Positions 1-62,041 of a stretch of DNA of 64,000 nucleotides are shown in pieces. The stretch spans positions 4,832,001 through 4,896,000 of the forward strand of contig CBDCNP010000002.1 in assembly GCA_965219415.1 (NCBI GenBank), written 5' to 3'. Below the pieces are notes generated by a model. That model saw nothing but the letters and a program-made list of their open reading frames with translations, did not search any database and had not been told where the DNA came from. A program made the position numbers and the translations under genes. Source of the stretch: Candidatus Marinacidobacterales bacterium. Its GTDB lineage: Bacteria > Acidobacteriota > Vicinamibacteria > Marinacidobacterales > DATDRI01. How positions within the stretch are numbered: the stretch's first letter is position 1; the number at the start of each line of letters is the position of its first letter.

Positions 1-226
1 AAGTCCACTATTTCAAAAGGGCCGAGTTTTGGCACAGGACGGGCTGCGAACGGTGAACATCTCCATGGCGGCGATATCGTCTTTATGGTTGCGCAAGAAA
101 GCCATCCATCGCTTCAGCTGGTCGGAGCGTAAGTCCTTGATTTCGTGGGCGGGGCAGTTTTGACGATGCACAGCCAGTTTCTTCGGCGTGAGAGGATTGG
201 GCTAGCAGGTCGCGGACCTTGATCAC

Positions 227-793
227 ATGAATGAGACGAAAATCACAAAGCTTCAGGCTGCAAAGCGGCAGATCAACACCGGAATTCAGATGCTCTTCAG
301 AAACTACGATCCTGTGGCAATCCATACGGTCGCCATGGCGGGATTTCGTATTCTCAGGGATCTTGCGAAACAGAAAGGTCTAGAGCACCCCATCGATTCC
401 ATGATCAGGCCCGGAAAAGAGAAGGAGTTCTGGCGTAGGGGCAACAGCTTCGCCAATTTCTTCAAGCACGCCGACAACGATCCAGACGAAGTCTCGGACG
501 GCTTTTGGGAAGAAGCCAACGATTCGGTGCTGCTCATTGCCGCGACATACTATGACCTTCTTGGCTGTCAGCAGACCGAAGAGATGCAAGCTCTTGCGAC
601 GTGGTACATGGCACTCCATCCAGACGTTCTTTCCCAGGATGTGAATCCCGCGGTACAGGCCCTCGTTTTGGCGTCTGGTGAAATGCGATCGCTTGCGCGA
701 GAAGAGCAACTCAAGATTGGCTTAACGGTGTTGGAGAGGTGGAGCGCGGCGAAGGACGGATCGTCGGGTGCTTGCGCTGTTTACTGTTGGTGA
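227..793 (+). CDS. Hypothetical protein, possibly HEPN-like; C-terminus runs into a MITE
   Basis: 188 aa ORF with KLQAAKRQ..AIHTVA..ANFFKHAD pattern. It sits directly after an rve-C element end (…GACGATGCACA at ~171). HEPN is inference. Confidence 0.5.
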   Translation: MNETKITKLQAAKRQINTGIQMLFRNYDPVAIHTVAMAGFRILRDLAKQKGLEHPIDSMIRPGKEKEFWRRGNSFANFFKHADNDPDEVSDGFWEEANDSVLLIAATYYDLLGCQQTEEMQALATWYMALHPDVLSQDVNPAVQALVLASGEMRSLAREEQLKIGLTVLERWSAAKDGSSGACAVYCW

Positions 794-836
794 TGTATAT
801 GCATCCCTTTTCAAAAGAGGCACTTACGCTCCATTT

Positions 837-2036
837 GGTGCTTCCGCAATTAAGTGTTGGCGGCCAGCCCCTAACCGGTCTGCGTGCTAGAGTTTGGACC
901 AGAATTCCGAAGACACAGTTCTCTCATCGTCAGGGCCGAGCCAAAGTGAAGAATCGCAGATGTCTCAATCTCGCATGTCCGTTGCGGGGCAAAGTCAGTT
1001 CCGGAAACATCGTTCGCCACGGATTCTACCGAACCAGGTCCGGGAAACGCCGTCGATACCGGTGCGGCGAGTGCGGAAAGACGTTCTCCTCGACGAAAGG
1101 CACGCCCTACTACCGTCTCCAACATCGAAGAGCTACTTTCGATGGAGTCATCGCTCTCAGAGTCGAGGGTGTCAGCATTTCCGCGATTTCCCGGATCAAA
1201 GGGATTGCCTGGAACACCGTCGCCCGCTGGCTCGAGAAGGCAGCCCAAGGGTGTCGTCGATTCAATCACAGAAGGATCGCTGGCTTCGCTGCCGAAGAGC
1301 TTCAAGCCGACGAGATTCGCACGTTCGCGGGCAACAAGAAGACACCGAGTTGGGTCTTCGTTACGATCGAGGTCTGGTCTCGGCTCTGGCCATCGACGGT
1401 GACGGGAAGGCGAAGCTACCGGAACACTCACGCTCTGTTTCGCGACCTTTCGAGACGGATGAATTTCGAGCGTCTTCCCTTGATCGTCACGGATGGATTC
1501 GAATTCTACCAGAAGGTCATCCGTCGCTTCTTCGGTCCAGCGTGTCTCTACGGCCAGGTCCTAAAAACGCGCAGGAACGATCGTATCATCAAGGTCGAAC
1601 GCAGAGCGCTGCACGGAGCCGCGTGGCGATTCGAAGACGCGCTCAATAACTCCGAGGACTCTTCGACATTGAACACGTCGTTCATCGAGCGGTTGAATCT
1701 GACCATCCGGCAAAGCTCGGCATACCTTTCGAGACGAACGCTTTCCCACGCTCGCTCGACGGAGAGGCTCGATGAGCACCTGGAGTTGCTCCGTTGCTAT
1801 TACAACTTCGTCCGACCGCACGGAGCTCTGAAGTTCGGACGTGAGATCCGAACTCCGGCTATGCAGGCTGGTCTGACCACGCGACGGCTCACCTTTCGAG
1901 ACATCTTCTTGGCGACGACTATTCCTTTGTGGTCGCGGATCGAGGTTTTCGTGCTCAGTAGGGCGCGCAACCCGGTCTCTTCCGCACCTGTACCACTGCC
2001 CGCAGCCGCGTAGCAACACTTGATGGCGGAAGCACC
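837..2036 (+). mobile_element. IS1-family-like insertion sequence (copy 1, intact)
   Basis: TIRs GGTGCTTCCGCAATTAAGTGTTG / CAACACTTGATGGCGGAAGCACC enclose a transposase. Confidence 0.85.
946..2013 (+). CDS. IS1-family transposase (Zn ribbon, HTH, DDE)
   Basis: CxxxxC and CxxC, ADEI, VTDG, NTSFIERLNLTIR, YYNFVRPH and TPAMQAGL motifs; GTG start chosen inside the TIR-bounded element. Confidence 0.85.
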   Translation: MKNRRCLNLACPLRGKVSSGNIVRHGFYRTRSGKRRRYRCGECGKTFSSTKGTPYYRLQHRRATFDGVIALRVEGVSISAISRIKGIAWNTVARWLEKAAQGCRRFNHRRIAGFAAEELQADEIRTFAGNKKTPSWVFVTIEVWSRLWPSTVTGRRSYRNTHALFRDLSRRMNFERLPLIVTDGFEFYQKVIRRFFGPACLYGQVLKTRRNDRIIKVERRALHGAAWRFEDALNNSEDSSTLNTSFIERLNLTIRQSSAYLSRRTLSHARSTERLDEHLELLRCYYNFVRPHGALKFGREIRTPAMQAGLTTRRLTFRDIFLATTIPLWSRIEVFVLSRARNPVSSAPVPLPAAA

Positions 2037-3322: not shown

Positions 3323-3360
3323 CTCATACACGAAATCAAGGCCATTATTTCGACCTCGAC

Positions 3361-4792
3361 CCCGTCCTGTGCCAAAACTCGGCCCTTTTGAAATAGGCCA
3401 TAAATCAGCAGCTTAGTGTCTGTGTTTGCGACTGGGCCAAGGCCGTAGGCTTTACAATCGTCTGGCCCGAGGGTGTTATCTTCAGCTCCATGATGACCTA
3501 CCACGTGCAATTCCTACTGCTCGTTGTGGCTGGCTGGGTCAACCGCCAGCAGCAGGATGTGATCGACTACCTGCAAGAGGAGAACCGTGTGCTCCGAGCC
3601 GGGCTTCGGGGCAAGCGTCTCAAGCTCTCGGACGACGACCGGCGCAGGCTCGCGGTCAAGGCCCAGGCTTTGGGCCGCGAGGCGCTGGCCCAGATTGCGT
3701 CCGTTGCCACACCCGCTACGCTTCTGCGCTGGTACCGCTACCTCATCGCAGCTAAGTACGATGGCAGCAAGAACCGGAGCCCAGGCCGACCTCCGACGGC
3801 GAAGGATATCCGTGAGCTCATTGTACGCGTGGCGCGAGAGAACCCGACGTGGGGATATACGCGCCTGCGGGGCGCACTCAAGAACCTCGGACATGAACTT
3901 GGACGCAACACCATCAAGAGGCTCCTCGCCGAGCACGGTATCGCTCCTGCGCCGGAGCGGGGCAAGAGCATGTCGTGGAGCACCTTCCTCAAGGCTCATT
4001 GGGGCGCTATCGCTGCGACAGACCTGTTCACCGTCGAGGTGGTGAACCCGTTCGGGCTCGTCCGCTACCATGTCCTGTTTGTCATCGATATCGCCACTCG
4101 CTGCGTGTGCATCGGTGGGATAAGCTCGGACCCAAACGGGGAGTGGATGAAGCAGGTGGCAAGAAACCTCACGGACATGTGGGATGGTTTCCTCCTTGGC
4201 AAACGGTACCTCATCCACGACCGGGACCCGCTATTTACTGAGGCAGTACGTGGGCTGTTGAGAGATTCAGGCGTGAAGCCCCTCCGCCTTCCCGCCAATA
4301 GTCCGAATCTGAACGCATACGCGGAAAGATTCGTTCTCTCCATACGTCGAGAGTGTCTCGACCGCTTCGTACCTCTCAATGAGCGACACCTGCGGACAGC
4401 GATAACCGAATACGTAGTGCACTATCACACCGAACGGAACCACCAAGGTCTCGGCAACGAGCTCATCACACCTCTGCCGGCAAGCGCGAATGACGCTGGT
4501 CCCATCGTGTCGCGAGAGCGACTTGGAGGCATTCTCAACTACTACTGCCGTGCCGCGTAGATGGTTTGCTGGCGACGGTAGCCCCTCGGTGCGCTCTACC
4601 GGCGTAGCGTGGAAACAGCTTCAGGAACATGCTTCGATATTCGCTCTCGACTAGGTGGTCATCTGCATGGTGACGACCCGCCCGCCCAAGACGATTGTAA
4701 AGCTCACGGCCCTTGGCCCGGTCGCAAACACAGACACTAAGTTGCTGATTTATGGCCTATTTCAAAAGGGCCGAGTTTTGGCACAGGACGGG
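3361..4792 (+). mobile_element. rve-integrase IS 'element A' with ~100 bp terminal inverted repeats
   Basis: Left end CCCGTCCTGTGCCAAAACTCGGCCCTTTTGAAATAGG…TTTACAATCGTCT is mirrored at ~4688-4792; no flanking target duplication visible. Confidence 0.85.
3490..4560 (+). CDS. Integrase core (rve, DDE) transposase A, IS481/IS3-like fold
   Basis: [35 protein letters not shown] motifs. Confidence 0.9.
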
Positions 4793-5712
4793 GGGGCGCC
4801 ACGCATCCATGCTGAGCTCACCAAGCTCGGTTTCATCATCTCCGAGATTACGGTGTCGCGATACCTGCCGCGGCATCCCGCGGAGCCCGACCAGCTGAAG
4901 CGATGGATGGCTTTCTTGCGCAACCATAAAGACGATATCGGCGCCATGGATCTGTTCACCGTGCCCACCGCGTCGCTCCGGCTGCTGTACGGCTTCTTCG
5001 TCATCGAGCACGGCCGTCGGCACATCGTTCACTTCAACGCCACCTTCCACCCGACACCTGTTCGCGTGCTAGAGTTTTAGCCTGATTTCGATAGGCGCAG
5101 TTCTTTCGTCGATGCCGGCTGGGCCGAGTTTTGGCACAGGACGGGAGAATCTCAACCGCGAATTTCGACGCCGGACGAAAACCCAAGCGTCGTTCTCCAG
5201 CGAGGAGTCTGCGGTCGCTTTGCTGTTTGGGCTTATCGCCTCTGGCGTCTGAGCGAGGTTCTCGAACACGCGGAGGTTGCCGCCTGATATGATACTCTGG
5301 TGTGCGGTCTTCCGGTTCAGGCGCCGAGGACCTTCTGGCCCTGCGTGCCTGATCTCACCCTCCCAGGATGGAACCCTTGCATTAGTATGATGGAGTCCAT
5401 ATAGCAGGGATACACCGCCCTCCGGCCTTACGTCGCGGTAGAAGTCGACGCCGGGAAGAGCAAGTCCATCAGGGAAGGAACCCGTGAGGTCAAAATACTC
5501 ATGCGGCTTCCCGTTGGAAAGGTGCAAACTGCTGACCCGATGGGCGTTCGAATATTTTGACCAGACGCGGTCCGGGCCCTAGAGTCCAGTCCCGGATTAA
5601 TAATGATGATGGACAACCTTGTTTTTTTGGATACGACGGGTACGCGATCTTCTCTTTTGCATCCCAAGGCCTTGTGGCGAATCCCCCTCCCCACCCGTCT
5701 CACGGTGTTCGT

Positions 5713-8100
5713 CTAAAAGAATCGAAACGAGTAACTCACCTTGACTCCCCTTCCGATCTCGGGAGCCAGATCCTTGATGAACGAAGTGTGGTTCCGATAA
5801 AGCTCGTTTGTGAGGTTGTAGCCCCGGACCGCGAAAATGTGAGCGCTGTGACCCCGGGCCAGCGTATAGGAACCGACCACGTTCACAACCGTGTAACCCT
5901 CGGTAAGTGTTTCGTCTCGAAAGATCTGATCCTGCTTCGAAGCCAAGACCACCTCCGGCTCTATGTTGAGTCCCTCGTAGACCACGCTGAAACCTATGCG
6001 TCCATGGAACGGCGGGATTCGAGGCAAGGGCTCGTTCGTGTCGGTGAGCTCAGCATTGACATAGCCCGCACCCACATCCAGAAACAGATTGCGGTGGACG
6101 CTGAATACACCTTTCGCATCGAAACCCACGAATCGGCTGTCGCCTTGTAGAAAGGGAGCCAGTAGAAGACCATCGACGATCTCGTCCGTATACGCCGGAA
6201 AGACAAAGTTGTCGATGTTGTAGTAGTAGACGTTGAACTCCCCTTGGAGTAGGCGTGACTGGTTCCTCAAGCTAAGATCTACTCCGATGCTCGCCTCTCG
6301 TTCCAAGTCGGCATTGCCCACCTCGAAAGCCAGAGTGCCAACGTGAGGCCCGAAATTGTAGAGTTCTTCGAGCGCTGGCGCGCGGTACGAGCGCGTGAAG
6401 TTGGCCACCAGCGCGGTGTTGGTGGCCACATCTACATGAAGCCCAATCGAGCCGGAAACACCCGTGAACGAGCGCGGCCGGGCTTCGGGAGGCTCGAGGT
6501 CGGTGTGCTCGTTCTCGTCGTCTTCCTCGCCTTCATGCTCTTCCCCTTCGTTCGCGTGACCGAGTCCTCCGCGCTCTTCGGGTTGGTAGTCGTTGTATTC
6601 CAGGCGGCCGCCAAACTGGAGGCGAGCCGCACCGGACAGTCGCAGTTCTTCATAGGCAAACGCCGCGAAGGCGCCATGAGTGGTCGCGGGAGCCAGGGCT
6701 TCCTCACCGACCGAGTTGTAGTCCCGAAACGTTGCCTCCACACCGAATGTCCCGTTGAGCTCTTCCGTGCGACGCTGCTCCACCGCGGCTCGGACCACGA
6801 ACACGTTGTTGTCGAATGTCGTGGCTACGGTGTCGACGCCCGCACTCGTCTCGACCTCGTCGTGGGTATAGTCGGTGTAGTTCATGACCACGCGAAAAGC
6901 GTCGAAGAAACGGTTGTCTAGGTTTCTGAGGCCGGCATCGAGTCGTGCCGACTGGCGTACGGTATCCACATCGACGAAGAGCTCTTCTTCCTCGTGATGG
7001 TCTTCTTCCCCCTCATGGTCTTCTTCCCCCTCATGGTGTTCTTCCCCCTCTGCCTCCTCGTGGCCATGAGCATGAAACTCACCCGCAAAGGGGATGCCGA
7101 AGCGGCCATTCTCGTGCTGATACCCAGCGCTGAAATAGGCTCTTTCCGTGAAGTAACCGACCCCGGCTCGGCCATTCGAGAGTCGAGAAGCCGAGTTCGC
7201 GACGGATCCCTCTGGTGTGTCGTAGTCATCCGTGCGCCGACCACTCGCACCGCCCCAGACGGCCCAATTGCCCTGGCCGAACTGAAACTGACCGTTGGCA
7301 CCTGCTTGGTTGTCGGTGGTCCCTCCGTCAACCGAGACCTGTCCCAAGAATCCCTCCAACTGCGTACGGATGAGGGCCTCGTGCGGTGTGACAGCATTGA
7401 CCACACCACCGATGGCGTTACTTCCGTATAGGAGGGTCGCAGGCCCTTTCACCAACTCCAGACGCCTCAAACCGCTGGGATCGAGTGTCACCCCGTGATC
7501 CGCGGACTGGCTAGAGAGATCGCCGGTTCGGATACCATCCTGCATTACTAATACCCGGTCTCCGTCGAAGCCGCGGATGATCGGTCGTTCCGACCCCGGC
7601 CCGAAGCTCCGCTTCGCGACCCCTGGATCTTTTTCTAACATCGCTCCCACCGAAATAGAGGGGTTCTTCGTGAGTTCCACCCAATCTAGCGAAGTGACGG
7701 TGTTGAAAGCCTCGAGGGTCACCACCTCGCCGGCTAGCTCGGCGGTTACGGTCATCGATTCGTGGATAGGTGATAGCTCCAGAGAAAAATCCACTTCCGC
7801 CGTTGTCCCGGCTGCCACCGATACCCGCTGCCTCTCGGCGGTCAGGTGGTCTCGCTGAGCCAGAATCTCGTAGTCTCCGACCGGTACCCCCTCGAACTCG
7901 AAGCGACCCTCGTGATTGACGGTGGTCGAGCGTCTCAATTCGACGATCAATACAAGTGTTCCGTGAACGGGCTCGCCGATGGCTCCGAGCACCACCGTGC
8001 CGGAGATGGCCCCCGTCTCCTGAGCTGAACTCACGTTCCCGATTATGAGTCCGACCACGACCATATGGAAAACAAACAAACTCCTACCGAACGACCTCAT
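5713..8100 (-). CDS. TonB-dependent receptor with His/Glu-rich loops (ZnuD-like metal uptake)
   Basis: Signal peptide, plug motif RPIIRG..ELVKGPATLLYGSNAIGGVVN, C-terminal F, and HAHGHEEAEGEEHHEGEEDH tracts. Confidence 0.9.
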   Translation of the reverse strand: MRSFGRSLFVFHMVVVGLIIGNVSSAQETGAISGTVVLGAIGEPVHGTLVLIVELRRSTTVNHEGRFEFEGVPVGDYEILAQRDHLTAERQRVSVAAGTTAEVDFSLELSPIHESMTVTAELAGEVVTLEAFNTVTSLDWVELTKNPSISVGAMLEKDPGVAKRSFGPGSERPIIRGFDGDRVLVMQDGIRTGDLSSQSADHGVTLDPSGLRRLELVKGPATLLYGSNAIGGVVNAVTPHEALIRTQLEGFLGQVSVDGGTTDNQAGANGQFQFGQGNWAVWGGASGRRTDDYDTPEGSVANSASRLSNGRAGVGYFTERAYFSAGYQHENGRFGIPFAGEFHAHGHEEAEGEEHHEGEEDHEGEEDHHEEEELFVDVDTVRQSARLDAGLRNLDNRFFDAFRVVMNYTDYTHDEVETSAGVDTVATTFDNNVFVVRAAVEQRRTEELNGTFGVEATFRDYNSVGEEALAPATTHGAFAAFAYEELRLSGAARLQFGGRLEYNDYQPEERGGLGHANEGEEHEGEEDDENEHTDLEPPEARPRSFTGVSGSIGLHVDVATNTALVANFTRSYRAPALEELYNFGPHVGTLAFEVGNADLEREASIGVDLSLRNQSRLLQGEFNVYYYNIDNFVFPAYTDEIVDGLLLAPFLQGDSRFVGFDAKGVFSVHRNLFLDVGAGYVNAELTDTNEPLPRIPPFHGRIGFSVVYEGLNIEPEVVLASKQDQIFRDETLTEGYTVVNVVGSYTLARGHSAHIFAVRGYNLTNELYRNHTSFIKDLAPEIGRGVKVSYSFRFF

Positions 8101-8161
8101 GGCAATCTCCCCCCTAGATAGACGACGACTGAGAAAAAGCGATAACAGGCTGGGTGGGGAG

Positions 8162-8443
8162 TTAGGCGGGTGGAGCTCGGGGCGCGCTCAGAGAGCTGGC
8201 TGGCGATAGCTCTCGATACTCAGACGCCTGAGGTGCCGAGCTGGCGCGCTGCGTCGGCGGTTCTGCCGTGACCGGCGCTGCAGTCAAAAGTGTCGGCTGA
8301 CTGGCTACCTTGCAGGGTGTACATCCTTGACCGTCACTGTGCCACGGTCCTGGGAGGAGACCAGCCGTCAGAACGACCGCGGTCCCCAGCGCAACAAGGA
8401 GGACCAGCCAGCCGTAGATAGGCTGACGCATCCTTTTAGACAT
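8162..8443 (-). CDS. DUF2946/CruR-like small protein (CxxC plus C-terminal RAPP) upstream of the TonB receptor
   Basis: MSKRMR.. TM segment, WH..CTPC, ends APRAPPA; lies 61 bp upstream of the receptor. Confidence 0.7.
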   Translation of the reverse strand: MSKRMRQPIYGWLVLLVALGTAVVLTAGLLPGPWHSDGQGCTPCKVASQPTLLTAAPVTAEPPTQRASSAPQASEYRELSPASSLSAPRAPPA

Positions 8444-8853
8444 CACTTGTCCCCTTGCAGTCCAGACTACCATAGTATCTGGGCGAATCACAAGGGGAAG
8501 GGGCGAGCGTGTACGCTCCCGACATGAAGGAATGTTGGTCACGCGCGCCTGCGGACCCATCAGGGTGCTTCCGCTACGGCGAAAGTCGTCGCACTGCCGC
8601 GAGTCGGTGGACTGCACCATCGATACGAGTGGCGAGAGACAGCCTGAGTCAGCTTGGTCGCTCGCGTTACTCGGCTGGTCGCCGAGAAGTTCGTCCTCAG
8701 CCGTGAGGTCAAAATACTCATGCGGCTTCCCGATGGTAGAAACGTAGCAGCTCGCCAAGCCGTCACGGGAGCGCACCTTGTGCTCGGACTTGAGGTAACT
8801 GTTCGCTGGCTGGGAACAGCAGTAGATTCTCCTTGCCTTGATGATTCCCGACG

Positions 8854-8951
8854 TGTCCAAAAACACAAACGAACTCCAGACTCACGCGCCGGGCCGTTTC
8901 GTATTAGACGTGTCTACGCTTGGTTCGCCAATGGAAGCTAGAATCCTCGGT
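8854..8951. repeat. Orphan IS end 'F' (TGTCCAAAAACACAAACGAACTC); also at ~13066, 29002, 35056-35153, 36419-36535, 47925, 60622
   Basis: Recurring TGT-starting terminus. At 36419-36535 two such ends form a mini-element. No cognate transposase in the window. Confidence 0.7.
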
Positions 8952-9387: not shown

Positions 9388-9743
9388 CTAAAAGAGTTCA
9401 GTCCGGGCGCTCTCTGCCTCGCCGGCGTCGATCTCGGCCGCGTCAGTTCCTGCGATCTGATCCGCCAGCACCTGCCCATAGGTCGGGAAGCAAGAGCGTT
9501 CAACTTGCGCCTCCTGATTCCAGAGCCGGGCTCGAATCAAGGCCTTGGCGCAGTGGAGGAACGCCTCTTCCACCGTCACTTTGAGGACGGAGATGGGCAA
9601 CGTGCCCTGGATGGCTAGAGGCTTCAGCAGTTCCGGATCAGTGGAAATCTCCGCCTGCCCATTGATCCGAAGCGTTTCGGTCAAGCCCGGCACGAAGAAC
9701 ACCAAGCCCACGTAGGGACGTTCCACCAGGTTCATCAACGTGT
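9388..9743 (-). pseudogene. 3' fragment of a pyridoxamine 5'-phosphate oxidase-like FMN-binding protein
   Basis: VGLVFFVPG..ETLRING..VEEAFLHCAKALIRARLW; 5' part cut at MITE B. Confidence 0.75.
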
Positions 9744-9892
9744 CCCGTCCTGTGCCAAAACTCGGCCCTTTTGAAATAGACTACAAATCAGCAGCTTAGA
9801 CGTCCTTGGAATCCGCGCAGAATCCAGGGTATTTCGCGCCGCAGGGCTGGCTTCCGACCCATGGGCTGGCGGATGAATAAATAGAAGGCACA
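9744..9892 (-). mobile_element. MITE 'B' (~149 bp); copies at 11652-11800, 14676-14826, 26932-27080, 32589-32737, 47624-47772, 47774-47923; partial at ~20330-20451 and 45540-45633
   Basis: Near-identical TGTGCCTTCTATTTATTCATCC…TTTTGGCACAGGACGGG units. Confidence 0.9.
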
Positions 9893-10065
9893 GGCTGGAA
9901 ACGGACTTACGGTGCGGCTAGTGAGGCACTCCCATAGGAAACGGGGAGAGACAGATAGGCCGTGCCTACGGAGCACTGCGCCAGCCCTCGACCCTACCGC
10001 CCAGAAACTCGCGGTGTTCCCCGTTTGTGGTACATTGTCAGAAAACAGGACAGGGAGGTGTCCAA

Positions 10066-10323
10066 ATGGCCAAGACCGAAATGATCCGTGCCCGTGTTGA
10101 GCCGGAGTTGAAGAGCCAAGCCGAAGAAGTCTTCTCAGGTCTCGGTTTGTCGCCAACCGAGGCTATCACGCTGTTTTATCGACAGGTGACGCTGCATCAC
10201 GGTTTGCCGTTCGCGGTAAAAGTTCCCAATGCCGAGACCATCGCGGCGCTGAGACAGGCCCGCGCAGGAGAGGGACTCACAGAATACGCCGACCTAGAGG
10301 ATCTCAAAGCTCGTCACGGTTGA
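10066..10323 (+). CDS. dinJ: RelB/DinJ-family antitoxin
   Basis: MAKTEMIRARVEPELK..GLSPTEAI..GLPF..PNAETIAA; GGAGG RBS. Confidence 0.9.
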   Translation: MAKTEMIRARVEPELKSQAEEVFSGLGLSPTEAITLFYRQVTLHHGLPFAVKVPNAETIAALRQARAGEGLTEYADLEDLKARHG

Positions 10324-10326
10324 TCC

Positions 10327-10593
10327 ATGCGCCTGCTCACCACGAAGCGATTCGAGAAGGATCTCAAGCGTAGCAGGAAGCGCGGCAAGAATATCGACAA
10401 GCTCTGGAGTGTCGTGGAACGGCTCCTGTCGAATCAGCCTCTCGACACACGACATCGGCAGCATCGGTTAGCTGGGGACTGGTCTTCTTGCTGGGAATGT
10501 CACATCGAACCGGACTGGCTGCTGGTCTGGGACCAACAGGATGACGCTCTCATCCTGGTGCGGACTGGAACCCATACCGATTTGTTCGGTTGA
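10327..10593 (+). CDS. yafQ: YafQ-family mRNA interferase toxin
   Basis: F.KDLK..H.L.GDW…ECHIEPDWLL…RTGTHTDLF; 3 bp after the antitoxin. Confidence 0.92.
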   Translation: MRLLTTKRFEKDLKRSRKRGKNIDKLWSVVERLLSNQPLDTRHRQHRLAGDWSSCWECHIEPDWLLVWDQQDDALILVRTGTHTDLFG

Positions 10594-10762: not shown

Positions 10763-11651
10763 ATGTGGTGGATTGACATTCTGCTGGTTGTCTTGACATG
10801 TGCTTTTGCTTGCGTAGCGATTTACAGGGGGATCAAGCTCCACGGGAAAGGTATTACGTCCTTCCTTGTCGCCTCCATCGTTCTGGGAGCCCTACTAGCT
10901 GTTCCTGTCGAAACCATTGAATTCCTAGGAACGAAGATCTCAATACGAGGACCTCGCCTGCGCGATGTCTCGATCGAGATCGAGTCGCTCTCGAGCCAAG
11001 TGCGAGCGGATGAACTTTCAGTGTTCCTCGTGCCAGCCCGGAACCGCGGCACTGTCAGCGATAGTGGGCAAGCAGCGAGGGTTGATTTCAAGGAGATTCC
11101 GGAAGATATCTATCACGTTCTCGTCGCGGATGGGGCTGGACATCACTCTCTGCTTGAAGACAGGTCGGTAGCGGGAGCGACCTCTGAGCTGAAACCGGTC
11201 CCGAGATTCCCCCGCGGAGGCTTCGGTAAGCGGCGTTGTGAGGCAACTGGGGGGAATGGATCGGTCGGGGACCCTAGTCGTGGTTAACGACGAGTTGGCA
11301 TGGGTTGACGAGAACGGCCGCTTCGACGTCTTCGGGTTGGAGCTTGGCAATTCATACAGCCTGAATGTTTTCGGCAACAGTATCGCGAACCGTAGCGGGA
11401 AGCTGTCTGACTACGAGGAGAAACTAGCTACAGTGATCTATGCGCCGGATCCTGTTCCGATCGCCCGGATATGCGAGGAGATGGAGATTCGGAGCCGGGA
11501 GGGCGATCGGGACGAATGGTCCTGCCGTGAACGGGACTACAACCGATACCCAGCGGATGTGGGCAAGCTATGGTTTTACACGAGGATTCAAGCTGTCCCG
11601 CCGACCGAGGTCGTGCATCGCTGGCGCTACGGAAACGAGGCGGTCGATGTA
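10763..11651 (+). pseudogene. Membrane protein with DUF2914-like C-terminal region; frameshifted near 11215 and truncated by MITE B
   Basis: Two overlapping ORFs (10763-11287, 11238-11687); GKLWFYTRI..VVHRW motif. Confidence 0.5.
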
Positions 11652-50617: not shown

Positions 50618-52033
50618 CTAGCTGAAGTCCACCCCGAAGAACAGCACCGCGATGATGATCGCCGCCACGGCCAGCGGCGACACGAACTGAATGAAGAACC
50701 GCCACGCTCCATAGTTGAACCACCTGGGTTCTGAGCCATCCACGAGCTCCCGCTCGGTGTACTTGCGCGTCAGGAACCAGCCCGCCGCGATCGTGATCGC
50801 AAATCCCCCGGTCGGGAGCATCCAGTTCGACACGAAGTGGTCGACCATGCCGAACCAGCTCGCCTTGCCGCCGAAGAGCATCTGGCCGAGCGCGCCGCCG
50901 AGTTGGAGCTCGGTGATCGCGCCGACACCACCGAACGACAACGCGGCGAGGACCGTGAAGGCAAACACCGCACCACCACACAGCAGCGTCGCCGTGGCCC
51001 GCGGCATGTGGTGTTCGTCGATCACGTAGGCAGCGACCACTTCCAGTAGCGACATCGTCGAGGTGAGCGCCGCGAGGGCCACCAGCACGTAGAAGAGTGG
51101 CCCCAGGAATGCCCCGAACGGGACCTCGGTGAAGAACAGCTGCGGCAGCGAGATGAAGAGCATCCCCACAGTGCCCGTGCCGCTGACCTGCTCATCCATA
51201 CCCGGCACGCTGAAGATCACCGAGAACATGATCACCGTGGCCACGAGTGCGATCAGCGTATCGAGCACGACGATGATCGCCGAGGCTTTCACGATCGACT
51301 GATGCGTTGCGATGTACGAGCCGTACGTCACCATCGTGCCCATGCCGAGCGAGAGCGTGAAGAACGCGTGGCCGAGCGCCTCGAGGACGCTCCCCCCATC
51401 CAACTCGCCGAAGCGCGGCAGGAAGATGAAGCGGAGCGCCTCACCGGCCCCGGCCATCTCCAAGGCGGAGACGAGCAGCAAGACGAGGATCCCGAAGAGA
51501 ATCGGCAGAAAGACACGCGCGATGCGCTCGATGCCCTTTTGGACGCCGAAGTAGACGACCGAGACCGTGGCGATACTGAACCCGAGAGACAAGCCAAGCT
51601 GCAGGCCGCCATTGGCCGCCTGCGCACCGAACAGCTCGCCCATCGAGGCGCCCGCCGGGAATCCACCGACCGACCAGCCCGCGGACTTGGCGAAGTAGAA
51701 GAGCGACCAGCCCGCAATCACCGTGTAGTAGCTGAGCAGCAGAAAGCCGCAGAGCACGCCCCAGAGGCCAACGATGTCCCACGCCGGCCCGATGGCCTGC
51801 TTGAGCGCCCCGACCACGCTCTTCTGCGTCGCTCGCCCGATCAGCAGTTCGGCCATCATGATGGGCAGGCCCACGGCGGCGATGCACACGAGGTACACGA
51901 GGACGAAGGCCCCGCCGTTGTTCTCCCACGTGACGAACGGAAACTTCCACAGGTTGCCGAGGCCGATCGCGCTCCCGGTCGCGGCGAGAATTAAGCCGGT
52001 GTTCGAACTCCAATGGCCGCGCGGCTCTGACAT
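50618..52033 (-). CDS. Sodium-dependent transporter, NSS/SNF family
   Basis: GSAIGLGNLWKFP, NGGAF, AFFTLSLGMG motifs. Confidence 0.92.
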   Translation of the reverse strand: MSEPRGHWSSNTGLILAATGSAIGLGNLWKFPFVTWENNGGAFVLVYLVCIAAVGLPIMMAELLIGRATQKSVVGALKQAIGPAWDIVGLWGVLCGFLLLSYYTVIAGWSLFYFAKSAGWSVGGFPAGASMGELFGAQAANGGLQLGLSLGFSIATVSVVYFGVQKGIERIARVFLPILFGILVLLLVSALEMAGAGEALRFIFLPRFGELDGGSVLEALGHAFFTLSLGMGTMVTYGSYIATHQSIVKASAIIVVLDTLIALVATVIMFSVIFSVPGMDEQVSGTGTVGMLFISLPQLFFTEVPFGAFLGPLFYVLVALAALTSTMSLLEVVAAYVIDEHHMPRATATLLCGGAVFAFTVLAALSFGGVGAITELQLGGALGQMLFGGKASWFGMVDHFVSNWMLPTGGFAITIAAGWFLTRKYTERELVDGSEPRWFNYGAWRFFIQFVSPLAVAAIIIAVLFFGVDFS

Positions 52034-52336
52034 GTGTCGTTCTCCGATCGATGGCGTGGTCTACGGGAGGCGATGCGGCCCCAACAGATCCCGGCCCGTG
52101 AAGTCTCGCCCAGTAGACGTTACGTAAATACTCTAAAGGATTTCTGTCGGACCAGCGAGCGGCACGGCAGTATCGCGCGTCAGCACGCCACGGAAAGTCA
52201 TCCGACCGTGGCGGCCGCCACGCACCTGGGTACTGGGTGCTTCCGCCATCAAGTGATGGAATGGACTCCTCCACTGACATAGACGGCATCGATGTGCCAA
52301 AGTCAGTCGAATACGCATCGAAAAGGAGGAGTCCGA

Positions 52337-53368
52337 ATGAAAGATACGACAATCGCTGTGGATCTTGCAAAGAACGTCTTCGAGATTGCCATCTCGGGAG
52401 AAGCGGGGAAGGTGTCCAAGCAACTCCGTGTGAGTCGACCCAAATTGGTGTCGTTCTTTGCCAAACAGAGCGCTGCCACCGTGCTTCTCGAAGCCTGCGG
52501 CTCGGCTCACTTCTGGGCAAGGACGTTCCGAAGGTTGGGACACGACGTCGTCCTGCTCCCACCTCACCTCGTGAGGCCGTATCGACGCGGGAGCAAGAAC
52601 GACCGCGCCGACACGAAGGCGTTGCTCGAGGCCTACAGGAACGAGGAGCTTCTTCCCGTACCCATCAAGTCCGTGCACCAGCACACCCTCGCTGCGCTCC
52701 ATCGCCTGCGCTCAGGATGGCTCTCCACACGGACCGCACGCATCAATGCCGTACGCGGGCTCCTGCGCGAACTCGGATTCATCATCCCAAAGGGCGCTCA
52801 CTTCGTCGTGCCCGCCCTCTTCGAACTCGTCGAAGACGCTGATTCTGATTTGCCCGACGTGCTCCGTTCGCATCTCCGTGATGCCTGCTCCGAGATTCGA
52901 GAACTCAAGGACAAGTGCGCTAGCATCGAGCACGAGCTCAAGGCGCTCACCAAGCAGCTTCCTGAAGTCCAACGACTTCTCGCCATTCCCGGCATCGGAC
53001 TTCTGGCCGCGACCGCCATCGTGGGCTTCGTCGGCGATCTTCGCCGCTTCCCATCGGGGCGCCGCTTCTCGAGCTACCTCGGCCTAGTTCCCAAGGAAAA
53101 CTCCAGTGGCGACATTCGCCGCCTCGGACGCATCACCAAGCGTGGCGACTCCTACCTCCGTATGCTCCTCACCCAGGGCGGGCGCGCCGTGCTCCGCGCG
53201 GCGAACGTCAGCAAGAGCCCGCCCGACAAGCTCCGCGCCTGGGCTCGGAAGGTCCACCGCTCGCGGGGACACAACAAGGCCGTGATTGCTGTCGCCAACA
53301 AACTCGCCCGGATCGTCTGGGCCGTCTCCACCCGCGAGAGTGAATTCCAGTCGCCGGTGGCCGCTTAG
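52337..53368 (+). CDS. IS110 DEDD recombinase/transposase
   Basis: AVDLAK, LEAC, KNDRAD, IPGIG, GLVP..NSSG, AVANKLAR motifs. Confidence 0.95.
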   Translation: MKDTTIAVDLAKNVFEIAISGEAGKVSKQLRVSRPKLVSFFAKQSAATVLLEACGSAHFWARTFRRLGHDVVLLPPHLVRPYRRGSKNDRADTKALLEAYRNEELLPVPIKSVHQHTLAALHRLRSGWLSTRTARINAVRGLLRELGFIIPKGAHFVVPALFELVEDADSDLPDVLRSHLRDACSEIRELKDKCASIEHELKALTKQLPEVQRLLAIPGIGLLAATAIVGFVGDLRRFPSGRRFSSYLGLVPKENSSGDIRRLGRITKRGDSYLRMLLTQGGRAVLRAANVSKSPPDKLRAWARKVHRSRGHNKAVIAVANKLARIVWAVSTRESEFQSPVAA

Positions 53369-53409
53369 ATTTAGAGGCTCCACTTTCGTGTTTTCCTTTT
53401 TCCCTTCCA

Positions 53410-53600
53410 AAAGAGGCTGCGACGATACCCATCCAACTGATGGCGTACCGGTCGGACCGGCGCGGGGTCAAGCCAATAGCAACACTGGCCCTAAGAGGTC
53501 GTTCAAAGTGATTGGCTCCTCGCGCGCGGATTTTCCATCATGGCCCGGAGCACCCAAGACGCTCCTCACTGAGGCCGAAGATACGTTTGCAGTCTGACCC
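53410..53600 (+). ncRNA. Putative bridge/seek RNA of the IS1111 element (boundaries approximate)
   Basis: Contains target-matching TAGCAACACT and AAGTG and donor-matching TTCCATCA and AGATACG segments within stem-loops. Confidence 0.75.
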
Positions 53601-53700
53601 ACTCGTCACGACGCGATGGATGCGCAGCTTCGATGGAAGATTTATTAAGAAAGGGGCGTGACTAGAAAGAAAGGGGCTTGACTAGAGGAGTCCAGATATG

Positions 53701-54882
53701 TTGCTACGCGGCTGCGGGCAGTGGTACAGGTGCGGAAGAGACCGGGTTGCGCGCCCTACTGAGCACGAAAACCTCGATCCGCGACCGCAAAGGAATCGTC
53801 GTCGCCAAGAAGATGTCTCGAAAGGTGAGCCGTCGCGTGGTCAGACCAGCCTGCATAGCCGGAGTTCGGATCTCACGTCCGAACTTCAGAGCTCCGTGCG
53901 GTCGGACGAAGTTGTAATAGCAACGGAGCAACTCTAGGTGCTCATCGAGCCTCTCCGTCGAGCGAGCGTGGGAAAGCGTTCGTCTCGAAAGGTATGCCGA
54001 GCTTTGCCGGATGGTCAGATTTAACCGCTCGATGAACGACGTGTTCAATGTCGAGGAGTCCTCGGAGTTATTGAGCGCGTCTTCGAATCGCCACGCGGCT
54101 CCGTGCAGCGCTCTGCGTTCGACCTTGATGATGCGACCGTTCCTGCGCGTCTTGAGGACCTGGCCGTAGAGACACGCTGGCCCGAAGAAGCGACGGATGA
54201 CCTTCTGGTAGAATTCGAATCCATCCGTGACGATCAAGGGAAGACGTCCGAAACTCATCCGTCTCGAAAGGTCGCGAAACAGAGCGTGAGTGTTCCGGTA
54301 GCTTCGCCTTCCCGTCACCGTCGATGGCCAGAGCCGAGACCAGACTTCGATTGTAACGAAGACCCAACTCGGTGTCTTCCTGTTGCCCGCGAACGTGCGA
54401 ATCTCGTCGGCTTGAAGCTCTTCGGCAGCGAAGCCAGCGATCCTTCTGTGATTGAATCGACGACACACTTGGGCTGCCTTCTCGAGCCAGCGGGCGACGG
54501 TGTTCCAGGCAATCCCTTTGATCCGGGAAATCGAGGAAATGCTGACACCCTCGACTCTGAGAGCGATGACCCCCCATCGAAAGTAGCTCTTCGATGTTGG
54601 AGACGGTAGTAGGGCGTGCCTTTCGTCGAGGAGAACGTCTTTCCGCACTCGCCGCACCGGTATCGACGGCGTTTCCCGGACCTGGTTCTGTAGAATCCGT
54701 GGCGAACGATGTTTCCGGAACTGACTTTGCGCCGCAACGGACATGCGAGATTGAGACATCTGCGATTCTTCACTTTGGCTCGGCCCTGAAGATGAAAGAA
54801 CTGTGTCTTCGGAATTCTGGTTCAAACTCTAGCACGCAGACCGGTTAGGGGCTGGCCGCCAACACTTAATTGCGGAAGCACC
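53701..54882 (-). mobile_element. IS1-family-like copy 2; frameshifted transposase; tip of the right TIR displaced to 52236-52255
   Basis: Near-identical to 837-2036; GGAG has become GGGGGG near 54570. Confidence 0.85.
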
Positions 54883-55678: not shown

Positions 55679-56372
55679 ACCGCAGGTGATACGTGCATCC
55701 GATGATTTCGGTCAAATACAGTTCAAGTCCCTTGCCTGGAACCTTGCGCCTCGTGGTGTAGAGGTCATCTCGATCTAACTATTATCTGGAAACGTCCTGA
55801 TAAACTATTGACACGACCAAAACTAGTGGTGCTTCCGCCATTAAGTGTTGGTGAGATGATGCTAAGACGTTACGGTGCATTTAATTACAGCCAAAATAGC
55901 GCTCGTGACCTTCGCTGCGCATTAAATGGAGCGTAAACGCCTCTTTTGCAAAGGGATGTGTGCACATCACCAACAGTAAACAGCGCAAGCCCCGATCAGA
56001 TGCCCTTCTGGCGCTTACAATTGTAAAGCCGAATGTAATGCTAGCGAGGGCCGCGCCGGTCAATCTTAAGGTGAGTGTAGTTGAGATTGGCCAATACATG
56101 GCTGAGCGCGCGGCCGTCGCTGCTACAGAGATACGCCTGGCCGCCCAGCCCAAGCTGAAGGATATCGGCTGAATCTTCGTTGACCGTTCCGTTCGACCCG
56201 ACGACGCCACGGGCGTCTTAGAAACGTGGAGAGGCTCGCCAGTGCCACGTCAGCTGGTCTCCGCGAATTTCGACAACGTCTCTAGGATTCGTTCTCGGGT
56301 GGGCGCAGGCCGACTGGCTGCGACCGCATCATCCCGACGCGGCGGCCAGTCTTGAACAAGAGGAGACATAGG

Positions 56373-57329: not shown

Positions 57330-57600
57330 ACGGTGCGGCCAAGGTCTGGATGCCTAACACCGTATCAAATCATCAATGATGAGGTATGAGAGAACATCAT
57401 TCGTACCGCTCCATCAAAATCACGCGAACCGCCAGGTGCTTCCGCCATTAAGTGTTGGTGAGATGACGCTAAGACTTTACGGTGCATTAAATTACAGCCA
57501 AAATAGCGCTCGCGACCTTCGCTGCGCGCTAAATAGAGCGTAAACGACTCTTTGCAACTGGATACGTACACATCACCAACACTTAATGGCGGAAGCACCG

Positions 57601-58904: not shown

Positions 58905-60162
58905 TGGACTTGACCCGCTTTCGTGGACACCTAATCCTTTGGGAGACAGGAGTCCACGATGTCAAAGCAGGGAAACAGATACGCGGCCGAGTTCCGGCGC
59001 CAAATGGTAGAGCTGGTGCGAGCTGGCCGCGGCTCCGAAGAGCTGGCGCGAGAGTTTGAGCCCTCGGGCCAGACGATCCGGAACTGGGTGAACCAGGCGG
59101 ATCTCGACGAGGGTCGCAGGCAGGACGGTCTGACGAGTGAGGAGCGTGCGGAGCTCCGCCGCCTGCGACGGGAGAACCGTTAACTACGGTTGGAGCGGGA
59201 GATCCTCTCAAAAGCCGCGGCCTGGTTCGCTCGGGAGACCGAGTCGGTACCACCGAAGCCTTCCGATTCGTGAGGGCGAACCAGGATTCACTACCGGTTG
59301 CCACGATGTGCCGACTGCTGGACGTCTCCGCCAGCGGCTACTATGCGTGGCTTGAGCGTGCCCCGTCGGCCCGCGCGGTGTCGGATGCGGAGTTGCTTGA
59401 GAAGATCCGGGCGATTCACACCGCGTCGCGGAGCACGTACGGCGCGCCGAGGATCCTCCACGAGCTACGAGAGACACACGAGCTCCACGTCTCACGCAAG
59501 CGTGTAGCGCGGCTAATGCGCGAGGCTGGCATTCAAGGTGTTCACCGGCGCAAGAGGGCGCACACTACGATTCGCTGTGACGACGCCCGTCCCGCCCCCG
59601 ATCTCGTCGACAGGAATTTCGAGGTGGACCGGCCCGACCGCCTGTGGGTCGCCGATATCACCTACGTGCCCACGTGGTCGGGCTTCTTGTTCCTCGCCGT
59701 CGTGCTGGACGCCTTCAGCCGACGCATCGTCGGATGGGCAATGGCTACCCACCTGCGGACGTCGCTCGTCTTGAGCGCCCTCGACATGGCGCTGTTCCAA
59801 CGCAAGCCCGGCGACGTCATCCATCACTCGGACCAGGGCACGCAGTACACGTCACTAGCGTTCGGCCAGCGATGCCGGGAGGCCGGGGTGCGACCGTCGA
59901 TGGGTTCAGTCGGGGACTGTTACGACAATGCGATGTGCGAGAGCTTCTTCGCGACGCTCGAGTGCGAGCTGATCGAGCGCCGGTCGTTTCGCTACCACGC
60001 TGAGGCGCGCATGGCGACCTTCGATTTCATCGAAGGCTGGTACAACCCGCGACGACGACACTCCGCCATCGACTATTGCTCGCCTATCCAATTCGAAAGG
60101 AGGTACTATCGCGACGCTTGATCCCTAACTCTTAACCTGTCCACGAAAGCGGGGTCACTTCA
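58905..60162 (+). mobile_element. IS3-family (type 2) copy 1; orfA with premature TAA at 59181, orfB at 59270-60121
   Basis: TG…CA ends with GACCC(C)GCTTTCGTGGACA IR; WVADITY, HSDQG, DNAMCESFF motifs. Confidence 0.92.
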
Positions 60163-60731
60163 CTATTTCAAAAGGGCCGAGTTTTGGCACAGGACGGGGT
60201 CGGCAGCTGCCGTCGCGAGCTCCTTGAGCATGTCGTGGTTCTCGGCGCATGTCATCTCATCCGGCTCGTGCGAGCTTACATCAGCTACTATCACGAGGAC
60301 CGTTGCCACTTGGGGCTGAACAAGGACACACCGAGCTTGAGAGCGGTCACGCACCGACCGTCTCCTACGGCGAAAGTAGTCGCACTGCCGCGAGTCGGTG
60401 GATTGCACCACCGATACGAGTGGCGAGAGGCAGCCTGAGTCAGCTTGGTCGCTCGGCTGGTCGCCGAGAAGTTCGTCCTCAGCACCTTCCCTCGCGCGCT
60501 GACCACGCTCTCCAGCATGTGCTCGAGGGCAGTCCGGGCCTAGAGTCCAGTCCCGGACAAATAATGATGATGGACAGCATTATATACGGAAGTCACATCC
60601 CACCCACTACCGGAGGCGTCGTGTCCAAAAACACAAACGAACTCAAGTCCCTTGCGCCGCCTTGGCCCGGTCGCAAACACAGACACTAAGCTGCTGATTT
60701 ATGGTCTATTTCAAAAGGGCCGAGTTTTGGG

Positions 60732-61989
60732 TGAAGTGACCCCGCTTTCGTGGACAGGTTAAGAGTTAGGGATCAAGCGTCGCGATAGTACCTCCTTTCG
60801 AATTGGATAGGCGAGCAATAGTCGATGGCGGAGTGTCGTCGTCGCGGGTTGTACCAGCCTTCGATGAAATCGAAGGTCGCCATGCGCGCCTCAGCGTGGT
60901 AGCGAAACGACCGGCGCTCGATCAGCTCGCACTCGAGCGTCGCGAAGAAGCTCTCGCACATCGCATTGTCGTAACAGTCCCCGACTGAACCCATCGACGG
61001 TCGCACCCCGGCCTCCCGGCATCGCTGGCCGAACGCTAGTGACGTGTACTGCGTGCCCTGGTCCGAGTGATGGATGACGTCGCCGGGCTTGCGTTGGAAC
61101 AGCGCCATGTCGAGGGCGCTCAAGACGAGCGACGTCCGCAGGTGGGTAGCCATTGCCCATCCGACGATGCGTCGGCTGAAGGCGTCCAGCACGACGGCGA
61201 GGAACAAGAAGCCCGACCACGTGGGCACGTAGGTGATATCGGCGACCCACAGGCGGTCGGGCCGGTCCACCTCGAAATTCCTGTCGACGAGATCGGGGGC
61301 GGGACGGGCGTCGTCACAGCGAATCGTAGTGTGCGCCCTCTTGCGCCGGTGAACACCTTGAATGCCAGCCTCGCGCATTAGCCGCGCTACACGCTTGCGT
61401 GAGACGTGGAGCTCGTGTGTCTCTCGTAGCTCGTGGAGAATCCTCGGCGCGCCGTACGTGCTCCGCGACGCGGTGTGAATCGCCCGGATCTTCTCAAGCA
61501 ACTCCGCATCCGACACCGCGCGGGCCGACGGGGCACGCTCAAGCCACGCATAGTAGCCGCTGGCGGAGACGTCCAGCAGTCGGCACATCGTGGCAACCGG
61601 TAGTGAATCCTGGTTCGCCCTCACGAATCGGAAGGCTTCGGTGGTACCGACTCGGTCTCCCGAGCGAACCAGGCCGCGGCTTTTGAGAGGATCTCCCGCT
61701 CCAACCGTAGTTGACGGTTCTCCCGTCGCAGGCGGCGGAGCTCCGCACGCTCCTCACTCGTCAGACCGTCCTGCCTGCGACCCTCGTCGAGATCCGCCTG
61801 GTTCACCCAGTTCCGGATCGTCTGGCCCGAGGGCTCAAACTCTCGCGCCAGCTCTTCGGAGCCGCGGCCAGCTCGCACCAGCTCTACCATTTGGCGCCGG
61901 AATTCGGCCGCGTATCTGTTTCCCTGCTTTGACATCGTGGACTCCTGTCTCCCAAAGGATTAGGTGTCCACGAAAGCGGGTCAAGTCCA
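60732..61989 (-). mobile_element. IS3-family (type 2) copy 2, intact (orfA 61621-61935, orfB 60773-61624)
   Basis: Inverted, near-identical copy of 58905-60162. Confidence 0.92.
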
Positions 61990-62041
61990 TGGCACAGGAC
62001 GCGATCCAGCTGTGGGACCCACCCCGCGTTTACATGAAAGG

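Follow-up and report, generated by a model that had tools for sequence, protein, structure and literature searches.

How does a bacterial genome come to carry tens of kilobases in which the ends of mobile elements stand between unrelated, often truncated gene segments? The question is raised by a stretch of 64,000 nucleotides (nt) from Candidatus Marinacidobacterales bacterium (assembly GCA_965219415.1, contig CBDCNP010000002.1), hereafter the window, which corresponds to C3:4832001-4896000 of a genome (G000) of 8.05 Mb, with three contigs (C1 to C3) and 59% G+C. A preliminary description had viewed it as a mosaic in which the ends of insertion sequences (ISs) act as joints, and had proposed that repeated one-ended or adjacent-deletion transposition, or end-to-end recombination, accretes a largely defence-related library of foreign DNA, integron-like in outcome but with no IntI. 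The mosaic itself is borne out. The locus nonetheless looks like the result of extreme mobile-element-driven reshuffling and exchange, not of a new integron-like capture machine, and the explanation favoured here, to which we would give about an even chance of being right, combines non-resolving or rearrangement-coupled transposition with recombination between shared end modules in a plastic zone of about 1 Mb. When the window was tiled with a library of 13 element types taken from it and 18 smaller repeats, 101 repeat pieces from at least 13 families covered 25,909 of the 64,000 bases (40.5%); the pieces group as 35 blocks (median 317 nt), between which lie 34 accessory segments of 89-5337 nt each, and the clustering of ends in blocks of 100-600 bp noted previously applies to 23 of the 35. 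Within its genome, the window is the densest part of a zone of about 1 Mb (about C3 4.1-5.1 Mb) saturated with ISs and their short derivatives, where 64-kb bins contain 22-35% repeats; in the first 2.4 Mb of C3, there are almost no repeats of the window's families. By the same library, which derives from the window and so biases genome-wide shares, repeats amount to 9.1% of C3, 10.0% of C2 and 0.75% of C1, and the window falls within the top 0.14% of sliding windows for repeat content.

Among the ends forming these joints, the A end is a terminal module of 57 nt with the exact terminus ...GGCACAGGACG. Allowing up to 2 mismatches, the window contains its 18-mer 22 times, against a mean of 0.01 in shuffled sequence and with 0 of 100 shuffles reaching 22; with two more degenerate or split copies, this agrees with the figure of about 25 first reported. 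The genome totals 526-535 A ends versus only 11-13 full copies of element A, and neighbouring A ends are randomly oriented genome-wide (LR 121, RL 121, LL 136, RR 145). The full-length copy in the window (3359-4793, +) measures ~1.43 kb, has inverted ends of ~85 nt, and encodes at 3490-4560 a transposase of 356 amino acids (aa) of the DDE type with rve_3, HTH_21 and HTH_32 domains. It scores 97 bits with the NCBIfam IS481 model, below the cut-off of 224; close relatives of this transposase sit in Candidatus Marinacidobacterales (Acidobacteriota) genomes, and the sources name its relatives "transposase InsO family." In the IS481 family, the inverted repeats begin with TGT; TGTGCC is present in the A end but lies 5 nt internal to the terminus (CGTCC-TGTGCC). 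IS481 members also produce a short direct target duplication of 4-15 bp (ISfinder). Distant members of the A family were examined in other phyla at 24 loci, of which 13 carry an CGTnnTGTGCCAAAACTC-like inverted repeat, 8 have none and 3 are dubious, and a direct repeat of at least 3 nt flanks 0 of the 13 that bear the family-type inverted repeat. Element A belongs to an IS481-like group of DDE elements that is widespread and leaves no target duplication behind. More broadly, transposases 53-66% identical to that of A were observed in Myxococcota, Planctomycetota, Verrucomicrobiota and other metagenome-assembled genomes (loci L033-L078), with an inverted repeat of the same type and without target duplication, and together these A-like transposases and their repeats look like a distinct, widespread IS481-like clade.

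That A ends recur as joints was correctly seen, but they are mostly not solo: because U151, U96, H127 and MITE321 carry them, seemingly isolated A ends are for the most part one terminus of short, non-autonomous and often unlike-ended units with two ends. U151, with 70 near-full genomic copies, has an A-type terminus on one side and a sharp second terminus, named F (TGTGCCTTCTATTT), on the other, and U96 has the same F and A termini (45540-45635, +). In the window, U151 lies at 9744-9892 (-; F terminus TGTGCC..., A terminus ...GGCACAGGACG), at 11652-11800 (-), where it adjoins the final 209 nt of an A element (11801-12009), at 14676-14826 (+), and as two tandem copies at 47624-47923 (+); a further one shares 32589-33154 (-) with a 23-nt C end and a 393-nt fragment of the E left end, and a partial U151 (+) is combined with MITE166 (-) in the block 20328-20614. 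The F terminus, present in 241 genomic copies, is never paired with itself; that it might be the end of an IS of its own was considered and rejected, facing pairs among the 241 copies lacking a preferred spacing. H127 (33364-33490, +; 40 full genomic copies) is a hybrid with a B-type left and an A-type right terminus, the B type being that of the IS1-like element B1 described below. MITE321 (13753-14074, +) is a complete unit with A-type termini at both ends, which occurs as one unit and in many copies in several genomes, and MITE166 (55828-55993, +; further copy 57435-57599) has B-type ends and 149 genomic copies. As such, these units resemble miniature inverted-repeat transposable elements (MITEs) in being short, multicopy and devoid of transposase, with the termini of A or B1, except that the matching inverted termini of a MITE are absent from U151 and U96 (F and A) and from H127 (B and A).

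Two transposase-bearing elements are needed for comparison. B1 (837-2036, +) is an IS1-like element of 1200 bp with ends GGTGCTTCCGC...GCGGAAGCACC and a transposase open reading frame (ORF) at 739-2013; it scores 84 bits with the NCBIfam IS1 model, below the cut-off of 100, with weak zinc-finger and rve_3 matches. The other belongs to the IS3 family (340 bits against a cut-off of 160) and has the TG...CA ends and the 3-4 bp duplication of that family; its two copies in the window (58905-60162 and 60732-61989) are identical, inverted, and both located in A end modules. Copies of A, B, C and E are 85-97% similar, those of IS3 98-100%.

Where do the termini join? A known repeat lies just outside the A end at 106 junctions; in 53 of them, the match to the host begins directly after ...GGCACAGGACG, while 21 have it starting 1-4 nt before that point and 32 beyond it. 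The flank just outside the A terminus reads G (78%), G (88%), G or A (86%), T (67%) and C (45%), i.e., the terminus prefers to join GG(G/A)T(C). A palindromic target for element A, CCCCGTCC|GGACGGGG, was rejected, the host starting right after GGACG without the motif. As claimed previously, target duplications are lacking: a direct repeat of at least 4 nt surrounds 0 of 90 A-type and 1 of 265 B-type two-ended units, and none was found around units of the U151, U96 or H127 type, whereas the IS3-family control has 3-4-nt direct repeats around 8 of its 12 copies (or, counted differently, around ~20 of 36). For the A family, however, the 0 of 13 among distant relatives indicates a family trait, and one-ended events cannot be argued from the lack of duplications as such. 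In the IS1 family, each copy is flanked by a target duplication of 8-9 bp. All-pairs matching of 8-mer flanks, by which duplication partners separated onto different copies would be recognised, returned nothing for B1, U151, E and H127; over all B tips, there were 43, 25 and 23 matches versus 6, 6 and 0 in the control, an excess that a single hot spot in the A repeat largely accounts for; among unique flanks, where some 4 chance matches are expected, it proves little.

No simple insertion was found among the informative copies. Where both flanks of a copy fall within known repeats, the host runs on uninterrupted across 0 of 5 copies of U151, 0 of 11 of MITE166 and 0 of 2 of E, while for IS3 it clearly does so in 3 of 6 cases, the other 3 mapping ambiguously to the A repeat. 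Likewise, 7 of 12 IS3 copies have an empty counterpart at a paralogous site, each time overlapping by 4 nt, and none of 80 A-A, 110 F-A and 256 B-B units genome-wide has a clean one; two A-A units gave empty-site matches with gaps of 32-55 nt. At 70 host positions cut by A tips, the complementary half was never found beside another A tip, and complementary halves were recovered for A and F tips together at 6 of 112 positions (IS3 control, 4 of 22). For B-type tips, 83 positions yielded 9 complementary pairs; most of these overlap by 8-10 nt, and in every one the two halves belong to different copies, which is the outcome that replicative events left unresolved should produce. A-tip host positions adjoin the ends of other elements in 9 of 70 cases, above the sequence share of such ends, and one IS3 copy is itself split at 391/392, its halves standing 79 kb apart beside a U151 F tip and an A left tip. 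The short units with A-type ends and the B-type MITE166 bridge DNAs that are contiguous nowhere else, the partner being cut at the terminus, and the view that simple insertion does not explain the joints is thereby upheld for A-, F- and B-type units.

The clipped genes lead to the same point from the cargo side. Five of the seven clips initially listed were confirmed, and for the four genes where a missing half was searched through the whole genome, it was absent. A PNPOx-like fragment (9388-9743, -) is cut at a U151 tip and lacks its N-terminal part, its profile match starting at position 45 of 120, and no N half exists elsewhere in the genome. A gene of no known family (10763-11651, +) is truly cut at 11651, a copy in G014 (99%) being ~55 codons longer, but its assignment to DUF2914 has no Pfam match; the ~55-codon remainder found no match in this genome. 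The so-called nuclease at ~12008, a candidate clip, corresponds to an ORF (12010-12970) which begins inside an A end and is without family match, apart from weak PADLOC matches to Csx1/CARF (E about 2e-4). At 13216, just the last 170 residues of HsdR are left (13217-13729, +; residues 858-1023 of a 1029-position model), as described, but the adjoining end is a C-type MITE with both C ends and a deleted interior (13103-13214, -), not an A end. A full hsdR paralogue exists at C3:4813943-4815919, and no orphan N half turned up in the whole-genome search; a remnant of 100 nt that matches the fragment's 3' end at 94% identity was noticed at C2:74017-74116, ~870 nt from a full A element. The clip at 47334 is genuine: an A right end (to 47336) cuts a repeat of the CRISPR (clustered regularly interspaced short palindromic repeats) type and is followed by 3 full and 1 cut repeats (47250-47585, +). 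The main CRISPR array (68 repeats, C3:4795991-4801008) lies 31 kb upstream; its first repeat is cut by an E tip, and upstream of it only element debris was seen, with no cas genes on that side. At 50150, a TonB-dependent receptor gene (47993-50148, -) is deprived of ~145 N-terminal residues, and an intact paralogue of 863 aa, 99.6% identical over 2234 nt, is located at C3:3065079-3067309 with the uninterrupted site CCCCCTCCTG|GACGG; the break lies within the A repeat, at a host sequence resembling it in 10 of 11 nt, and nothing above 92% identity to the N-terminal part occurs elsewhere in the genome. The clip that did not survive is the hsdS one at 33488. That identity was rejected, the ORF encoding a DUF6978 protein that matches its profile from position 3 and looks whole, followed by a DUF1828/PDC-M24B gene (pair at 33491-34831, +), and the junction 33490/33491 is also present in two other genomes (G045 and G054).

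What the segments contain fits a defence library poorly. Only 8 of the 32 cargo ORFs scanned match defence models (24 match none), namely the hsdR fragment, the Mrr restriction gene (14909-15745, joined to U151 in the segment 14676-15745, +), a Shedu SduA-like protein and a ResIII helicase encoded with a 793-aa ORF at 20657-25561 (+), PDC-M24B, an MmeI-type IIG restriction-modification gene (62042-64000, -, extending past the window edge) and the weak Csx1 candidate among them. There are also a RelB/YafQ toxin-antitoxin pair, apparently whole (9925-10593, +), and a GmrSD_C nuclease. The remaining cargo comprises the clipped TonB receptor and another (5713-8100, with an ORF at 8162-8866; segment 5616-8573, -), an SNF-family symporter (50569-52234, -), GNAT and SnoaL proteins and a 1432-aa M14 peptidase/S-layer-like protein (40537-44953, +); cargo ORFs occur on both strands, and many segments are gene fragments. 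Nor is the cargo simply foreign, some of it being copied from the genome's own genes: the SNF block is 99.8% identical to C3:4469239-4470964, with boundaries at repeats, the M14 gene 95% to C3:1284473-1288889, the MmeI gene 96% to C3:4621792, and U151 with Mrr 92%, with an identical junction, to C3:3039255-3040685. The M14/S-layer-like gene proper (40616-44914) is one of at least 4 paralogues clustered at C3:1268041-1313144, in a repeat-poor part.

Exchange between lineages is suggested by six segments that match other genera or families at 96-99%. Among them, 5616-8574 recurs at 99%, within identical boundaries, in G003, which is of a different genus, 10939-11652 at 99% and 37064-37398 at 98% in G014, 12612-13008 at 96% in G018, and 33492-34821 at 99% in G045 and 98% in G054. 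For the Shedu block (20629-25927), no match beyond a 135-nt piece was found in 40 relatives, a weak negative given that these searches score just 7-14 candidates per genome. The A end occurs in only 11 of the 55 genomes of the order, in 2-511 copies and patchily even within genera, and all partners of the high-identity segments bear it. The sequence ...GGGCCGAGTTTTGGCACAGGACG|GGGTATGATG at 33490/33491 is identical in the window, G045 and G054, and yet, behind the last 27 nt at GGCACAGGACG|GGGTATGATG, the window continues into the body of H127 and both other genomes into that of U151. At 5615/5616, G003 has a B tip, and in the window an E tip is joined 3 nt inside that B tip; at 8574, both have a B tip, of which the window retains 11 nt only, joined to position 222 of E; at ~37064, an A tip stands 8 nt from the common part in G014 and an E tip 18 nt from it in the window. 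These comparisons indicate that junctions are inherited or transferred with the cargo, and that the neighbours change at or near the ends.

From these observations, the favoured explanation can be spelled out. The A, F, B, C and E units would move mainly by joining formerly separate DNAs and not by cut-and-paste insertion, either through replicative or intramolecular transposition that is not resolved (adjacent deletions, inversions, circle fusion) or through movement coupled to rearrangement. Shared end modules would then serve as recombination patches, at which the DNA beyond a conserved cargo-tip junction can be swapped, and site-specific nesting, i.e., of IS110 into the B repeat and of IS3 into the A repeat, would enlarge the blocks. 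Segments would be duplicated within the genome and exchanged among lineages with a common element pool, so that the mosaic, in which accessory genes (those for defence among them) appear both whole and clipped, would be a by-product of element activity and not of dedicated capture. A precedent is provided by IS481 and IS5 movements without target duplication that are tied to large duplication or deletion (PMC11708052).

Several points nevertheless weigh against this explanation. It is deduced from the final arrangements seen in a single assembly and in a few relatives, with no transposition intermediate or event observed, and, the A family being without duplications everywhere, their absence tells nothing about the pathway taken by A. 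Some joints are not transposase-exact: the TonB gene is broken at the look-alike of 10 of 11 nt, 7-9 nt into the A repeat, and no terminus marks the joint between 11 nt of B and position 222 of E. The samples are also modest: host continuity was informative for 18 copies, the empty-site test, seeing only elements with recurring flanks, effectively covers far fewer than the 446 units, and the search for complementary halves is insensitive, recovering 4 of 22 in the IS3 control. Family and age are confounded in this comparison, the IS3 copies (98-100% alike) being much more recent. Lastly, the multiplication of unlike-ended units such as U151 and H127 is left unexplained.

The main rival, possible though doubtful in our judgement, is that ordinary simple insertions were followed by a long period of RecA-type recombination among similar copies and by deletions, so that the flanks of the old families have all been shuffled and those of the young IS3 not yet. 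The similarity of 85-97% among A, B, C and E copies versus 98-100% for IS3 is in line with this, the split IS3 copy fits an exchange within the A repeat, three genomes that share one cargo-tip junction do not share the element body behind it, B-type host halves survive at other copies, and the A family lacks duplications intrinsically. On the other hand, the partner flank would have to be gone from nearly every copy (264 of 265 B-type units; host continuous in 0 of 18) over homologies of only 27-166 nt, and neither the terminus-exact cuts with their sequence preference nor the high-copy unlike-ended units would be explained. The latter two-faced units, together with the lack of simple insertions, would be explained if the termini acted as an exchange system, in which a transposase-bound A or B end attacks a resident end-flank junction or a look-alike; such a reaction would require only one proper end, replace one side while keeping the other junction, and let cargo be swapped, duplicated and passed between co-resident lineages in the form of end-bounded cassettes. 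We regard this as unlikely. Somewhat less probable still is that elements patch pre-existing chromosome breaks, each copy then bridging two ends of perhaps different origin, with resection of these ends clipping the genes and the element termini staying intact, as the authors of PMC11708052 raise for their IS5 and IS481 events. Patching suits elements at deletion or duplication junctions, e.g., the clipped 99.6% TonB copy, and is consistent with the microhomology of 0-3 nt at 21 of 106 junctions and with the proximity of ends to other elements' ends (9 of 70 positions); the G at the second position outside the A terminus in 88% points instead to target choice by a transposase and not to random breaks, and the 8-10-nt overlap of B-type junction pairs is that of a staggered cut.

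A dedicated integron-like capture system working on A ends through one-ended transposition or end-to-end recombination, and building a foreign defence library, is very improbable. Part of the reasoning behind it holds, partners being cut at the terminus and junctions recurring across genera, and cassette-like segments do keep their boundaries across genomes and contexts, as at 33490/33491, where one junction persists next to differing neighbours; the hsdR fragment, Mrr, SduA, PDC-M24B, MmeI, the CRISPR remnant and RelB/YafQ supply the defence content. The dedicated system is however not supported, given that the Pfam scan of the window detected no recombinase, at least 5 element families form the joints, ends and cargo have mixed orientations, 24 of 32 cargo ORFs are without defence match, part of the cargo is copied from the genome's own genes, many segments are mere gene fragments, and the pattern extends over the ~1-Mb zone and other zones and is not confined to one locus. 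That walks through repeats during assembly joined segments adjacent in no cell is scarcely credible, even though the genome looks metagenome-assembled (estimated contamination 8.45%) and a chimeric walk would be expected to leave a joint at each repeat. Matching flanks and empty sites are retained by the IS3 copies, which are longer (1.26 kb) and more uniform (up to 100% identical), identical junctions occur in independent genomes and in the 92% copy within this one, and most joints are repeats of 150-170 nt, short for long-read assembly. Sequencing runs labelled "sponge metagenome" contain only 8-10% of the sampled words, and short-read contigs from other runs break inside the window's repeats; one of them (19593-20388) nevertheless crosses the junction 20298 error-free with more than 31 nt on each side, and other error-free contigs enter repeats by 28-29 nt only, namely by 28 nt at 11652 and 17861.

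How does such a locus compare with known mosaics? The integron-like aspect is an analogy of outcome only: unrelated and often defence-related genes are separated by repeated joints, and cassettes are common to several genomes, as in integron arrays, and no IntI, integrase or recombinase was indeed found among the 86 window ORFs of at least 70 aa scanned against Pfam. Unlike in integrons, the joints are A, B, C, E and F termini in both orientations, and the cargo has no common orientation and includes many fragments. Mosaic arrays of intergenic repeats, i.e., bacterial interspersed mosaic elements (BIMEs), neisserial intergenic mosaic elements (NIMEs) and BOX elements, likewise consist of short modular repeats in variable order, here in blocks of 100-600 nt, but the modules of the window are termini of resident transposase-bearing elements and adjoin clipped genes. 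Genomes dense in expanded ISs are known from recently host-restricted or degenerating bacteria, such as Sodalis-type symbionts, Shigella and Bordetella pertussis. With these, the present genome shares a replicon content of ~9-10% elements, nested insertions, pseudogenes and element-bounded deletions, although here short, duplication-less and hybrid-ended units dominate and segments are shared across genera at 96-99%.

A close functional parallel lies in the IS26/IS6-family mosaics of resistance plasmids, with their translocatable units and replicative transposition. There too, genes are cut exactly at an element end, their missing halves are gone, single copies lack duplications and bridge unrelated segments, and segments are reused across contexts. 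In the window, by contrast, none of 30 ORFs scanned matches an IS6-family transposase, the joints are mostly non-autonomous units of 96-320 nt from several families, copies are mixed in orientation and not in direct arrays, the A family makes no duplication, and the setting is chromosomal and on a megabase scale. The pattern works like IS26-type mosaics (treated in PMC4471558 and PMC7986276) and yet is not a member of that kind. In Ngan et al. (mBio 2024; PMC11708052), an IS481-type element at a duplication junction and an IS5 at a deletion are reported without target duplication and without sign of IS-IS recombination, and an IS481-like end similarly borders the clipped 99.6% TonB duplicate in the window. 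Those were single laboratory events with full-length elements, whereas here hundreds of joints, mostly of short derivatives, are fixed in a natural genome.

If the favoured explanation is true, this genome and about ten relatives would constitute a genome-scale natural record of transposition joining unrelated DNA, involving an IS481-like family without duplications and an IS1-like family with duplications split between copies, and would offer hundreds of fixed junctions for testing the recent proposal that some IS movements are tied to deletions and duplications. What sets the case apart is its scale, the two duplication-less or split-duplication families, the hybrid-ended units and the cross-genus sharing of end-bounded segments, in which accessory and defence genes, exchanged at 96-99% identity, go together with a common pool of short element ends. 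Annotators of such genomes should not put "solo" ends and absent duplications down to decay alone. The literature searches on Marinacidobacterales returned no papers, and those on sponge, Acidobacteria and insertion sequences nothing relevant.

Further features complete the description. An A-type terminal module of 36 nt (tip at 41-43) opens it at 8-43 (+). Elements C and E are IS481/IS3-like; C (18090-19289, +; IS481-like, 1200 bp) has 221 nt from the left end of a B1 in front of it (17861-18081), and E occurs at 29718-31004, within a nest of U151, T9, T8, E and an IS256 fragment (26932-31485), and again at 39127-40371 (+; element positions 43-1287). The block 50149-50568 next to the clipped TonB gene gathers a 34-nt A left end, a piece of MITE166, a 161-nt fragment of an A left end and a 97-nt repeat. 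A 43-nt unit corresponding to positions 751-794 of T8 recurs in many junction blocks, with ~116 genomic copies, among them window 28997-29039 and 8 other places. An element of the IS110 family (52257-53698, +; 303 bits against a cut-off of 140), which shows the site-specific insertion of that family, resides within the right inverted repeat of a B1 copy (53699-54882); it has a single fixed insertion point in the B-type inverted repeat, and, as 47 of its 63 tips adjoin repeats at 4 positions of the B repeat, it evidently targets the end of another element. The IS3-family element repeatedly inserts at two spots of the A module, at distances of about 27 and 38 nt to its tip, producing duplications of 3-4 nt (window 58905 and 60731; C3:5162585, 4197207 and 1828321), and its two 100% identical, inverted copies in the window (58905-61989) enclose 568 nt of A and E debris in the manner of a composite transposon without cargo. 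As for the genome as a whole, whose estimated contamination is 8.45%, C1 (2.07 Mb) contains 1 A end only versus ~530 on C2 and C3 while having some other repeats in common with C3, and may be either a separate replicon spared by the expansion or DNA of another organism. An istA-like ORF of the IS21 type (19244-20230, -; 180 bits, profile positions 5-216 of 294) has no adjacent istB and is present as a single copy in the genome.

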